Source of the DNA: an uncultured Bacilli bacterium
Lineage (GTDB): Bacteria > Bacillota_I > Bacilli_A > RF39 > UBA660
Direction of reading: 5' to 3'
Length of the DNA stretch: 64,000 nt
Assembly: GCA_944355355.1 (NCBI GenBank)
Contig: CALVQE010000001.1
Span: 3,175 to 67,174, forward strand
Shown here: positions 16,257-17,738 of the stretch, one piece after another
How positions within the stretch are numbered: position 1 is the first letter of the stretch
Layout of the letters: the number at the start of each line of letters is the position of its first letter
Notes under the pieces: model-generated
The model's input: only the letters and a program-made list of their open reading frames with translations
Databases searched by the model: none
What the model was told of the DNA's origin: nothing
Made by a program: the position numbers and the translations under genes

Positions 16257-16691
16257 CTAGATTTCACATACATCAAGTTGTGGCGGTGGATAATCGTTGT
16301 AATACATGGTATTATTGTTATTTTTTGTCAGTCTTAAAATAACATCATGACTGCCAACTGACACTTCAAACATTCTCGTTAGCGAAACAAAAACATTTCT
16401 GTTTACTCCGACTCTTGAAACCAAATTGTTATCAATAAGAACATCTAGCCAAGCATTGTTAGCATCAACTCCACAATTTATATAATAACTAACTAATATT
16501 CTTCCGGTTCTACTATTTATTGTAGAACTAAGCACATTTGTCGTAGCTGTTAAATCTTTTCCACTTTGTCCATTTTGTTTGCCCTCATGTGATGAATTTT
16601 TACCTATAATACTTTTCAAGGTGTTTTGACCATGGACTATACTTGATGTATCTAAAAATATGTTATCCTGAAATTTAATTGACTTAGCCAA
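16257..16691 (-). CDS. tail-tip / putative receptor-binding paralog P3 (TTG start)
   Basis: MAKSIKFQDNIFLDTSSIVH module. TTG start preceded by AGGGGTGATTTAA. Confidence 0.6.
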   Translation of the reverse strand: MAKSIKFQDNIFLDTSSIVHGQNTLKSIIGKNSSHEGKQNGQSGKDLTATTNVLSSTINSRTGRILVSYYINCGVDANNAWLDVLIDNNLVSRVGVNRNVFVSLTRMFEVSVGSHDVILRLTKNNNNTMYYNDYPPPQLDVCEI

Positions 16692-16702
16692 TTAAATCAC
16701 CC

Positions 16703-16915
16703 CTAGCAATACCTCCTTTCACAGGAAGCATTTTCAAGAAAAGAGTATTGCTTAAATAAAGCAAGTCCTCCTTTCTCTTGTAAAATAGGCGTAAGCCCCG
16801 TAAGTAAGTAAGTAAGTAAGTAAGTAAGTAAGTAAGTAAGTAAGTAAGTAAGTAAGTAAGAGCATAACCCCTTTACTTCTACCATGTCAATACTTTTAAT
16901 TAATTTTTTTTGCAT
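16703..16915 (-). CDS. leader ORF 2 containing the (CTTA)15 tract
   Basis: 70 codons. The repeat is read as LTYL x5. It stops at TAG 12 nt upstream of the P3 TTG. Probably regulatory rather than a functional protein. Confidence 0.4.
   Translation of the reverse strand: MQKKLIKSIDMVEVKGLCSYLLTYLLTYLLTYLLTYLLTGLTPILQEKGGLALFKQYSFLENASCERRYC
16801..16860. repeat. tetranucleotide microsatellite (TAAG)15 on +, (CTTA)15 on -
   Basis: Fifteen perfect 4-nt units, read directly from the sequence. Confidence 0.98.
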
Positions 16916-16940
16916 AAATTTTGCTTTTTGTATTTAGCTT

Positions 16941-17324
16941 TTATGATAAATTTACATGAACCCAATTAAGCCATTTTTTATTGCTTTGTCTTCTCATGCT
17001 TAACCAATTGTCAGTATTATTCAACGCAAACGCAACTTGAATACAATAGCTTGATCCAAGTGAAATTTGAATAACTCCCCAGTGAACCGTATTTAATGTC
17101 GTTCCGTTGGGATTATTAGGACAATTGCCAAACATCAAAAACAAACCAGATCCATATGACGCAATATCATTAAAATTCGTATTATTTAGTTGATATTTAA
17201 CAGACAAACCACCATTTGATCCACCATCTCGCGACTCTATCATATCACTTAACAATTGTTTTTGATGAACAATTCCTTGAGTATCCATGTAATTACCATT
17301 TTTAAATTTTATACTTTTACTCAT
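16941..17324 (-). CDS. tail-tip / putative receptor-binding paralog P2
   Basis: MSKSIKFKNGNYMDTQGIVH module. It starts 8 nt after the P1 stop without an SD. C-terminal RRQSNKKWLNW motif. Confidence 0.6.
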   Translation of the reverse strand: MSKSIKFKNGNYMDTQGIVHQKQLLSDMIESRDGGSNGGLSVKYQLNNTNFNDIASYGSGLFLMFGNCPNNPNGTTLNTVHWGVIQISLGSSYCIQVAFALNNTDNWLSMRRQSNKKWLNWVHVNLS

Positions 17325-17332
17325 ATTTTTTA

Positions 17333-17635
17333 CTAGGTTTTAGATATGACATTCCAATCTCTTTCGTTAAATCTGTACAATAATGTATTATTTGATCCTA
17401 CAAACAAAATTTGTAATCTATACGTTTCTGTTTTAAAAACAATTAAAATTCCAAAATCGTAATATGCAATTGTATCTGGTTGATATTTTCCAGTATATCC
17501 ATGATACTCATATATTCCTGTTTTGTTGCAGTCATCAAAATCCATATTTTCACCATTTATCCACGTTCGATAAAGAAAATTTGTAGAACTCATATCCCAA
17601 ACATAACCGTTTGATAATTTAATTGATTTACTCAA
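17333..17635 (-). CDS. tail-tip paralog P1 (TTG start)
   Basis: MSKSIKLSNGYVWD module. TTG start preceded by AGAGGTGATTTAA. Confidence 0.55.
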   Translation of the reverse strand: MSKSIKLSNGYVWDMSSTNFLYRTWINGENMDFDDCNKTGIYEYHGYTGKYQPDTIAYYDFGILIVFKTETYRLQILFVGSNNTLLYRFNERDWNVISKT

Positions 17636-17738
17636 TTAAATCACCTCTAGTAATTAGCCTCCTCTCTAATGAGATTTGGCTTATGAGAGTTGCTAAATAA
17701 TCGAAGCAACCCCCCCCAAGATTGAATTTTGTTTTCAT
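17628..17738 (-). CDS. leader ORF 1 containing a G8 tract
   Basis: Hand-translated 36 codons, MKTKFNLGGGCFDYLATLISQISLERRLITRGDLIE. The SD AAAGGA lies 7 nt upstream of the ATG. The TAA stop overlaps the P1 TTG (ATTGAGTAA). It is below the ORF-track size cut-off. Confidence 0.4.
   Translation of the reverse strand: MKTKFNLGGGCFDYLATLISQISLERRLITRGDLIE
17710..17717. repeat. homopolymer C8 (+) / G8 (-)
   Basis: Read directly; it lies in codons 8-10 of leader ORF 1. Confidence 0.95.

Follow-up and report, generated by a model that had tools for sequence, protein, structure and literature searches.

What two hypermutable repeat tracts are doing inside short leader open reading frames (ORFs) that end on the TTG start codons of two cassettes of small tail-tip genes is the question raised by a prophage of about 31 kb in an uncultured Bacilli bacterium of the RF39 lineage (GenBank assembly GCA_944355355.1, contig CALVQE010000001.1). 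The window analyzed here is a stretch of 64,000 nucleotides (nt) of that contig (positions 3,175 to 67,174), with a G+C content of 30.8%, and coordinates given without further label refer to it. The answer to which the analysis leads is that the tracts are, with high probability, selected switches for the fiber-tip cassettes; that they would work by setting the reading frame of a translated leader, read out through translational coupling to a masked start codon, seems to us fairly probable on the strength of sequence comparison and RNA structure prediction. The coordinates, motifs and gene order from which such a phase-variable switch had originally been predicted are all present on the minus strand and are collected in Table 1.

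Repeat tracts and predicted start hairpins of two homologous leaders

Downstream of the gene for a DUF859-family tail protein, the minus strand encodes five small paralogs (P1 to P5), all of which open with (M)[S/A/T]KSIK[F/L] and diverge completely afterwards. The paralogs form two cassettes (P1-P2 and P3-P5), each headed by a TTG-start gene that is preceded by a leader ORF. Cassette 1 begins directly past the stop of the DUF859 gene, and the same VDEW terminus followed by a leader is found in four related contigs (L016, L017, L024 and L026). The ATG of leader 2 lies 23 nt past the P2 stop, in an A-rich context without a Shine-Dalgarno (SD) sequence, and this leader is called as a gene in the public assembly. 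A run of eight G (G8) in leader 1 and a (CTTA)15 repeat in leader 2 were confirmed at the positions originally reported. Both are perfect and both are long enough for slippage, as expected of contingency loci (about seven or more nucleotides for a homopolymer and about five or more units for a tetranucleotide). G8 is the sole G/C run of at least seven in the 64 kb, and (CTTA)15 the sole microsatellite of at least five units. A shuffled window yields a G8 run in 15 of 100 shuffles; what chance fails to explain is that both tracts fall inside a 900-nt span and occupy equivalent places in the paralogous leaders, and that they recur in relatives.

The frame arithmetic of the original prediction agrees with our recomputation. 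Counting from the T of the TTG codon, leader 1 as assembled (G8) is in the frame that reaches the start, running over the P1 TTG to a TAA at +5 that overlaps P1 codons 2-3, while G9 leads to a TAG at -14 and G7 to a TAG at -60. Leader 2 as assembled, with 15 units, ends at a TAG at -14; 14 or 17 units lead to a TAA at +5, and 13 or 16 units to a TAA at -63, located in a hairpin loop.

Minimum free energy (MFE) folding of the leaders yields three recurring hairpins, here termed H1, H2 and H3. In H1 an AAAGGAG box is paired with a CU-rich arm and the early stop lies in the loop, and in H2 a second CU-rich arm is paired with a second AGGAGG box. In H3, one predicted arm comprises the SD end, the spacer and the TTG (GAUUUAAUUGA) and the other codons 4-7 of the gene itself (UCAAUUAAAUU), leaving the +5 TAA in the loop. 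Its MFE is -13.8 kcal/mol over 41 nt in cassette 1 (z -6.3), with the leader TAA in the loop, and -9.8 kcal/mol in cassette 2, where the loop contains the TAA at 16686-16684 that ends the 14/17-unit frame; in both cassettes the probability that the start codon is paired is 1.00. Over 41 nt, the mean MFE of 23 distinct TTG starts is -9.6 kcal/mol, as against -2.4 kcal/mol for 33 starts of ATG paralogs (Mann-Whitney p = 1e-7), and the same two groups differ in mean z against shuffles (-3.6 versus -0.6) and in the probability that the start codon is paired (0.93 versus 0.48). RNAalifold recovers H3 as the consensus structure, and all 17 one-sided changes found inside H3 (17/17) result in G.U on the sense strand. 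Serine-isoleucine codons 4-5 read TCN-RTT in 22 of 22 TTG genes but in only 7 of 27 ATG paralogs (mostly AGT-ATA), a contrast that is due in part to ascertainment because the search patterns fixed the TC; the loci found through their proteins (L037, L045, L050 and L052) and the second cassettes found by context only agree with it. Two leader-bearing ATG genes (L034 at 3321 and L032 at 5798) have their SD in hairpins of different sequence, with energies of -14.4 and -9.2 kcal/mol. In these predictions the ribosome-binding site downstream of the leader is sequestered in secondary structure, which is one of the marks of translational coupling, and the start hairpin, a feature missed by the original prediction, gives the modeled leader geometry a mechanistic meaning.

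The energies computed for pairing with the anti-SD are -10.1 kcal/mol for P1, -9.6 kcal/mol for P3 and -10.3 kcal/mol for leader 1. For P2, P4 and P5, which start 8-13 nt past the preceding stop and had been described as devoid of a recognizable SD, the corresponding values are indeed weak (+0.6, -1.6 and -2.2 kcal/mol). Given this lack of an SD, we propose that the three genes are translated by coupling and that each cassette would switch as a unit.

Recurrence and length variation in related phages

Relatives were identified in public collections through a pattern taken from the DNA around the TTG starts, in which the two cassettes are conserved, and through contigs encoding the same or near-identical proteins. 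Every true relative follows one plan, in which a short ORF carries a simple sequence repeat (SSR), a TTG-start KSIKF gene lies 45-145 nt further on, and zero to two ATG-start KSIKF genes without an SD come next. The non-redundant leaders with this architecture number at least 17 and come from many metagenomes. Across 17 loci, a tract lies upstream of 22 of 24 TTG-start paralogs, the two exceptions being cut by contig ends, as against 1 of 27 ATG-start paralogs. The kind of repeat depends on the lineage (G7-G11, (CTTA)n, (AAGC)n or (ATAC/GTAC)n), and all four occupy one leader position, which in such a recurrent architecture is the signature of selected mutability. Five relatives (L019, L022, L026, L028 and L029) resemble the window phage in having two cassettes, each with its own tract, and the exact P3 protein occurs on 13 contigs from at least eight samples. 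In one phage lineage, the first-cassette leader contains two G runs (six loci, Table 1); only one of the three frames past run 1 continues to run 2, and the six assembled copies (6/6) all stop after run 1. Such a serial arrangement would form a double lock. Looser DNA patterns, tried in order to widen the family, returned only chance matches in unrelated genes (L030, L031, L033 and L035; L054-L058).

The cassettes are not confined to one tail type. Orthologs of P2 (>90% identical) and P3 (84-88%) are encoded in a contractile-tail (PBSX-like) baseplate module (L045 2050-3297; L049 2501-3990) that includes DUF2577, Gp10_C, the sheath initiator and Baseplate_J, which indicates that leader-plus-tip cassettes are exchanged between tail types. 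G9-G10 runs are also found inside other fiber ORFs of relatives (L049 3098-3107; L032, minus strand, 4212-4220), where they separate the N-terminal adaptor from the C-terminal domain; as assembled, the copy in L032 is out of frame. A classical in-ORF switch thus appears to coexist with the leader type in these phages.

Invariant tract lengths across related prophages would have spoken against the original prediction. Instead, as read from assembly consensus sequences, from which all tract lengths reported here derive, length is the main variable among relatives and the sole one in two pairs: L028 has G9 and L029 has G7, L016 has (AAGC)14 and L023 has (AAGC)13, and in each pair the flanks are identical over 200 of 200 nt on both sides. 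Repeat number therefore differs between near-identical genomes, as it does in contingency loci, and a one-unit tetranucleotide difference between contigs identical over 400 nt is not sequencing noise. One G-run leader is represented by G10, G8, G9 and G7 in four contigs, and leader 1 has G8 in the window and G9 in its L050 homolog. Homologs of leader 2 contain 4 (L037), 9 (L052), 13 (L051), 15 (window) and at least 19 (L053) CTTA units. This tract contains a gap in one scaffold and seven short-read contigs end within it; no tract length is available from Logan contigs, which end inside the tract.

The length variants cover all three frame outcomes, with seven single-tract leaders ending at +5, six at -14 and eight at the early stop. 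Among 17 leaders that are at most 85% identical to one another, 16 have a frame that runs uninterrupted from the tract to a stop lying between -6 and +8 relative to the start codon, as against 4.2 expected when the intervening sequence is shuffled. The three frame ends fall almost always at -57 to -77 (in or next to the first hairpin loop), at a TAG between -12 and -21 and at a TAA at +5, and this geometry holds despite indels that alter the length of the spacer (L052). With some ascertainment bias in the counts, the TAA at +5 (TTGNNTAA) is present in 22 of 22 TTG genes versus 14 of 27 leaderless ATG paralogs; a search pattern that did not require the T of this TAA found no family member without it. 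A stop of the upstream ORF within a few nucleotides of the downstream start, which is a further mark of coupling, is hence found as the +5 TAA in all 22 genes, as a TTGA in L018a and as a TAA adjoining the TTG in a locked variant. In this variant, represented by contigs from three sequencing runs (L045, L046 and L047), a leader 1 homolog precedes the P3 ortholog, the run is interrupted as GGGAGGGG, identically in all three, and the TAA of the 33-codon leader ORF directly abuts the TTG. Since the sole tract-less, fixed version that was found ends in this manner, the leader ORF appears to deliver ribosomes exactly to the start. Taken together, the recurrent architecture and the variable tract lengths of the relatives lend comparative support to the reading of selected slipped-strand switching that had been put forward from a single genome.

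A candidate leader-frame switch and its alternatives

In the mechanism that we propose, the TTG start and SD of each cassette would be locked in H3, formed with codons 4-7 of the gene itself, and a short translated leader ORF upstream would hold the slippage-prone repeat, to which replication slippage would add, or from which it would remove, whole units, so setting the leader frame. Below the tract, the three frames would end in the early hairpin loop at about -60, at the TAG about 14 nt before the start, or at the TAA in the H3 loop, five nt past the T of TTG. Ribosomes in the +5 frame would pass H1, H2 and the 5' arm of H3, stop in the loop and re-initiate at the exposed SD and TTG, turning the cassette on, whereas those in the early-stop frame would never reach H2 or H3, leaving the start masked and the cassette off; the -14 frame may be intermediate. 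The ATG genes without an SD would follow the TTG gene by coupling and the whole cassette would switch together. The scheme implicit in the original prediction, with the +5 frame on and the other two off, is plausible. The window phage as assembled would then have cassette 1 (P1 and P2) on and cassette 2 (P3-P5) in the -14 state, and lysogen or phage lineages would release virions with differing sets of receptor-binding tips, with a putative effect on host range.

Several observations weigh against this mechanism. Each of P1 and P3 is equipped with a good SD, which would permit some leader-independent initiation if H3 breathes, the leaders of internal cassettes (leader 2 of the window included) lack an SD, and the promoter-like site next to the CTTA tract, if real, would exclude the leader ATG from the resulting transcript. 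The L049 gene with an ATG start and a G10 leader has no start hairpin, and leader 1 of L037 no longer contains the +5 frame. H3 shows only weak covariation (one double change, with 96.5% of cells paired and 128 of 500 shuffles reaching the score) because the helix hardly varies, and H3 is also a DNA palindrome, which leaves room for a role at the DNA level. Simple coupling would not require anything as elaborate as the two AGGAGG boxes and H1/H2; an ATG or TTG often comes after box 2, giving mini-ORFs of 2-6 codons that end at the TAG or at a TAA abutting the start. Regarding the tracts themselves, a homopolymer may be given the wrong length and a long tetranucleotide tract may be collapsed, as is possibly the case for the (CTTA)4 of L037. 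Finally, the frequencies of the natural states were considered as a clue to which frames are on and proved uninformative, since a spread as even as 7:6:8 gives no hint.

It could be argued that the tracts do vary and modulate the cassettes, yet through transcription or the mRNA (promoter spacing, length of the 5' untranslated region (UTR), structure or stability), the leader frames being incidental. Phase variation is well known to arise from repeat tracts in 5' UTRs and promoters, as in Moraxella uspA2 and Neisseria porA, and the lack of an SD in the internal-cassette leaders would fit this explanation, as would the TTGACA-18-TATGCT element that adjoins the CTTA tract and the TATTGAC that recurs before the AAGC tract. 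Promoter-like matches nevertheless occur at chance density in the region, and the first-cassette leaders present a strong SD and ATG right after the DUF859 stop without any promoter-like element. Moreover, such an explanation predicts neither that 16 of 17 leaders would have an open frame nor the three conserved stop positions, the stop in the loop of the start hairpin or a locked variant whose leader abuts the TTG, and we regard it as unlikely. We also judge it quite unlikely that the tracts are neutral hot spots or assembly noise, with the SD and TTG of P1 and P3 sufficing for their constitutive expression and the palindrome acting as a DNA site for a regulator or for cassette recombination. 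The good SDs of P1 and P3, the roughly equal frequency of the three states and the lack of significant covariation would all be in line with it, and H3 is a perfect DNA palindrome in cassettes that plainly move between phages at leader boundaries. On the other hand, G8-G11 runs are very improbable in DNA of about 31% G+C and yet are recurrent only here, four unrelated repeat units share the same position, tracts go with TTG starts and start hairpins rather than with ATG paralogs, and one-unit tetranucleotide differences between contigs that are otherwise identical do not reflect sequencing noise. The one-sided changes in H3 point the same way, given that G.U on the sense strand is tolerated by RNA pairing and not by a symmetric DNA site.

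A further explanation does without heritable switching. Long homopolymers can cause RNA polymerase slippage, and the AGGAGG located 3-6 nt before the codon preceding the TAG recalls the prfB frameshift site (AGGGGG-UAU-CUU-UGA), so that polymerase slippage on G runs, or programmed frameshifting near AGGAGG/TAG, might send a constant proportion of ribosomes to the start in all cells. We know of no RNA polymerase slippage site made of a tetranucleotide tract of 13-19 units, however, and length polymorphism is directly observed in the DNA. A prfB-type programmed +1 frameshift (AGGAGG-N-TAG) was in turn rejected as a candidate, since such a site calls for a fixed 3-nt spacing before a slippery P-site codon, whereas the spacing here ranges between 3 and 6 nt and the codon in the P site (UGC, UGU or UAC) is neither slippery nor conserved. 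An explanation based on such slippage alone is in our opinion very unlikely, even if RNA or ribosome slippage could still act on top of DNA switching. Switching by replication slippage, decoded through the leader frame, hence remains the mechanism that we favor.

Fiber tips, prophage setting and known systems

Among the products of the cassettes, P5 is identified by sequence and by predicted fold as a tail-fiber tip, its C-terminal beta-sandwich being a tail-fiber distal domain. Its C-terminus shares 44% identity with annotated tail fibers of Alteromonas phage AD45 and about 30% with the fibers of Vibrio phages, the same domain is elsewhere fused to a "Phage tail fiber repeats" N-terminus (Phage_fiber_rpt), and its AlphaFold2 (AF2) model, with a predicted local distance difference test (pLDDT) score of 86, superposes on the C-termini of Vibrio phage fibers in BFVD with a template modeling (TM) score of 0.75-0.77. 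A fold search of the PDB with this model gave no match below E 0.04. P5 was modeled in place of P3, for which a homolog search returned close relatives only. P1 to P4 are assigned as fiber tips from their N-terminal paralogy and their position, and receptor binding by the tips, P5 included, is putative; P4 also weakly resembles the C-terminal part of the DUF859 model. The N-terminal motif of about 30 residues defines a large group of small proteins (at least 703 representatives after clustering at 50%, E <=0.001), which suggests that such cassettes are common in metagenomes. In our reading, this motif would be an adaptor by which exchangeable tips are attached to the tail, and the DUF859 protein is likely to be their docking partner. 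A search of 14700-19200 against cultured phages with blastn gave no match, nor did tblastn of P2, and an Rfam scan of the window gave nothing at gathering score, the sole match in a leader being spurious and of low complexity.

The prophage is bracketed by imperfect direct repeats about 31.2 kb apart, which are likely to be its attachment-site regions, although the order of sub-repeats is unlike at its two ends. On the minus strand, the DUF859 gene is followed by P1-P5, a gene for a 215-residue protein, a holin, a small Acb2/Tad1-like protein and an M23/LysM endolysin. The 215-residue gene (14752-15399), a possible further member of cassette 2, starts without an SD at the base right after the P5 stop (TAA ATG); its product carries a single hydrophobic segment at the N-terminus and matches GAF below threshold. 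The 70-residue product encoded between holin and endolysin (14250-14462) matches, by precomputed annotation, the Pfam family Acb2_Tad1_hairpin of anti-CBASS/Thoeris sponges. In another part of the prophage, the segment 36917-37130 matches portions of 26882-26982 and of the tape measure gene at its 3' end (21819-21960) with 84-92% identity, and may have been left by a second, related phage or have arisen by internal duplication. Outside the prophage, the minus strand of the host encodes a 2852-residue protein and an FtsK/EssC-like ATPase fragment (52151-60709 and 62041-63948), whose translations suggest a type VII secretion locus. The RsmA of this gut bacterium is 93% identical to its counterpart in a metagenome-assembled genome labeled "uncultured Bacilli bacterium".

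Table 1. Features of the prophage, its tip cassettes and leaders (positions in the window), with the two-G-run leaders of related contigs
Feature	Coordinates	Strand	Remarks
Imperfect direct repeats	12845-12990 and 44111-44249		TGTGGGTTAC motifs and a hairpin-like segment
Tyrosine recombinase gene	43326-44087	+	
Tape measure protein	24038-21528	-
Dit	21531-20833	-
Tal	20842-19187	-
DUF859-family tail protein	19177-17756	-	473 aa, end ...EIVDEW and stop; Pfam DUF859 E 8e-60; PHROG 372 tail protein E 5e-111
Leader ORF 1	17628..17738	-	36 codons, MKTKFNLGGGCFDY...; SD GAAAGGA 17751-17745, ATG 17738, TAA 17630-17628
Tract 1 (G8)	17710..17717	-	homopolymer in leader ORF 1
H1, leader 1	17690..17709	-	TTGCTT...AGCAA; early stop TAG 17695-17693 (G7/G10 frame) in loop
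H2, leader 1	17657..17680	-	MFE fold; CU-containing arm and AGGAGG box (17663-17658)
TAG at -14, leader 1	17647..17649	-	stop of the third (G9) frame, just 5' of SD GGTGA (17645-17641)
H3, cassette 1	17613..17645	-	SD end, spacer and TTG (17635-17633) paired with codons 4-7 (TCA ATT AAA TT)
P1	17333..17635	-	TTG start, 100 aa, N-terminus (M)SKSIKL...; small fiber-tip paralog
P2	16941..17324	-	ATG start, 127 aa, no SD, 8 nt past P1 stop; PHROG 3971
Leader ORF 2	16703..16915	-	70 codons as assembled, MQKKLIKSID...(LTYL)n...; ATG 16915, TAG 16705-16703
Promoter-like TTGACA-18 nt-TATGCT	16861..16890	-	adjoins the CTTA tract; 10/12 consensus positions; status uncertain
Tract 2, (CTTA)15	16801..16860	-	100% perfect, in leader ORF 2
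H1, leader 2	16736..16777	-	AAAGGAGG box 1 arm and CUCUUUUCUU, inner CTTGCTT/AAGCAA stem; early stop TAA 16754-16752 (13/16 units) in loop
H2, leader 2	16708..16732	-	GCUUCCU and AGGAGG box 2 (16717-16712)
SD and H3, cassette 2	16672..16701	-	SD GGTGA (16701-16697); TTG 16691-16689 paired with codons 4-7
P3	16257..16691	-	TTG start, 144 aa; paralog
P4	15881..16246	-	ATG start, 121 aa from MTKSIKF, no SD; DUF859 model positions 458-562, E 0.0065
P5	15400..15867	-	ATG start, 155 aa, no SD; PHROG 22284 tail fiber E 3e-18
Two-G-run first-cassette leaders (one phage lineage)	L022 146-294; L024 3111-3257; L026 3872-4019; L028 1703-1850; L029 122-267; L034 2137-2284

Most temperate phages of gut Firmicutes have not been cultured, and little is known about how they deal with host surfaces that vary. 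Diversity-generating retroelements (DGRs) and the DNA inversions mediated by Mu Gin and P1 Cin serve the same purpose, at the same genomic place, as is proposed for the tracts described here, and their mechanisms were not found at the locus. The interval from the tail genes to the lysis genes, to which the scan for reverse transcriptase was confined, contains neither a reverse transcriptase nor an Avd gene, and an invertible segment of the Gin/Cin or shufflon type was discarded in view of all paralogs being on one strand and of the lack of an invertase among the neighboring genes, the sole notable inverted repeat at the locus being that between the two palindromic start hairpins. In the closest DUF859 relatives of the genome collection (L001 and L003, with 55% and 48% identity), a DGR composed of a fiber of 580-590 residues, an Avd-like gene and a reverse transcriptase stands directly after the DUF859 gene (L001 7456-11270; L003 7461-11170), replacing the small-tip cassettes. 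The locus studied here suggests a third general solution to host range, beside retroelement mutagenesis and DNA inversion, in which several intact, ready-made fiber tips would be dealt at random by repeat slippage.

The tips themselves recall the BppU-BppL-BppA system of the lactococcal phages TP901-1 and Tuc2009, in which small separate receptor-binding proteins (RBPs) are docked on a baseplate protein. Like those RBPs, they are small (100-160 aa), combine a conserved N-terminal attachment segment with a variable head, and are encoded after Dit and Tal. There is, however, no detectable match in sequence or fold (the Tuc2009 tripod 5e7t ranks 37, with a TM score of 0.19), and the adaptor is here the (M)SKSIKF...DSSGIVH motif of about 30 residues. 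As regards the readout, a start sequestered in RNA structure and opened by upstream ribosomes, as well as re-initiation next to a stop, are known from the coat-replicase and coat-lysis junctions of MS2. In that phage coupling is fixed by sequence, whereas here a hypermutable repeat would heritably decide whether ribosomes arrive. Attenuation of ermC and cat likewise involves a short leader ORF and alternative hairpins that mask a downstream SD, but there the trigger is drug-induced ribosome stalling and no repeat tract is involved, while a genetic change of frame is proposed here.

Hypermutable polyG tracts inside the ORFs of RBPs, slippage in which truncates the protein, were reportedly found in Campylobacter phages by Sorensen et al. 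in 2021. Both systems share a phage SSR and, in the mechanism proposed here, would share the stochastic on/off expression of RBPs and the resulting mixed phage population. They differ in that the tract is here in a separate upstream leader ORF that leaves the structural genes intact, in that one tract would serve a multi-gene cassette, in the use of tetranucleotide repeats besides G runs, and in their hosts, which are here gut Firmicutes (metagenome-assembled genomes of Bacilli and Clostridia). In coliphages T2 and T4, contingency loci have been described as homopolymers of at least six inside coding genes such as agt and rIIA, with repeats being under-represented in tail-fiber genes (Gomez, Barrick, Waters; bioRxiv 10.1101/2025.10.21.683753). 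These loci resemble the present ones, as interpreted here, in relying on slippage-prone phage repeats for bet-hedging, but they have neither a leader ORF nor a coupling device. The literature on phage repeats that we consulted places them inside coding genes only, as in these two systems, and a search of the phase-variation literature for translational coupling and for upstream ORFs found neither term in the papers that it listed, both being absent also from a 2025 review.

The nearest cellular analog is lex2A/lex2B of H. influenzae, in which a tetranucleotide repeat in the small upstream ORF lex2A controls the next gene, lex2B, which encodes the enzyme; these are bacterial genes for surface glycans, not phage genes. 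The dependence of lex2B on lex2A is ascribed to translational coupling, and in lic1 three frames give three expression levels. To our knowledge, no start-codon hairpin with a stop in its loop has been described for lex2 or lic1. Relative to known SSR phase variation, the novelty of the present locus resides in the location of the repeat in a leader ORF, in the proposed readout through a masked start, in the probable switching of tail-fiber-tip cassettes and in its occurrence in gut Firmicutes prophages, and an upstream-ORF repeat read by coupling to a masked start would extend the phase-variation repertoire. A switch of this type would evade pipelines that scan for repeats only inside genes or promoters, and assemblies of such phages break or vary at the tracts, with the consequence that host range predicted from a genome would hinge on tract alleles; the module could also serve as a compact stochastic switch. 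We consider it somewhat better than an even chance that these phages carry a previously undescribed class of portable switch, in which a hypermutable repeat in a translated leader heritably decides the arrival of ribosomes and the unmasking of a hairpin-sequestered TTG. Such a switch would turn whole tip cassettes on or off, perhaps with three expression levels as in lic1. With one tract, with two ("double lock") or in a fixed form, it would pass as a module of leader, start hairpin and adaptor of about 30 residues among gut Firmicutes prophages, from those with non-contractile tails to those with contractile ones and back.

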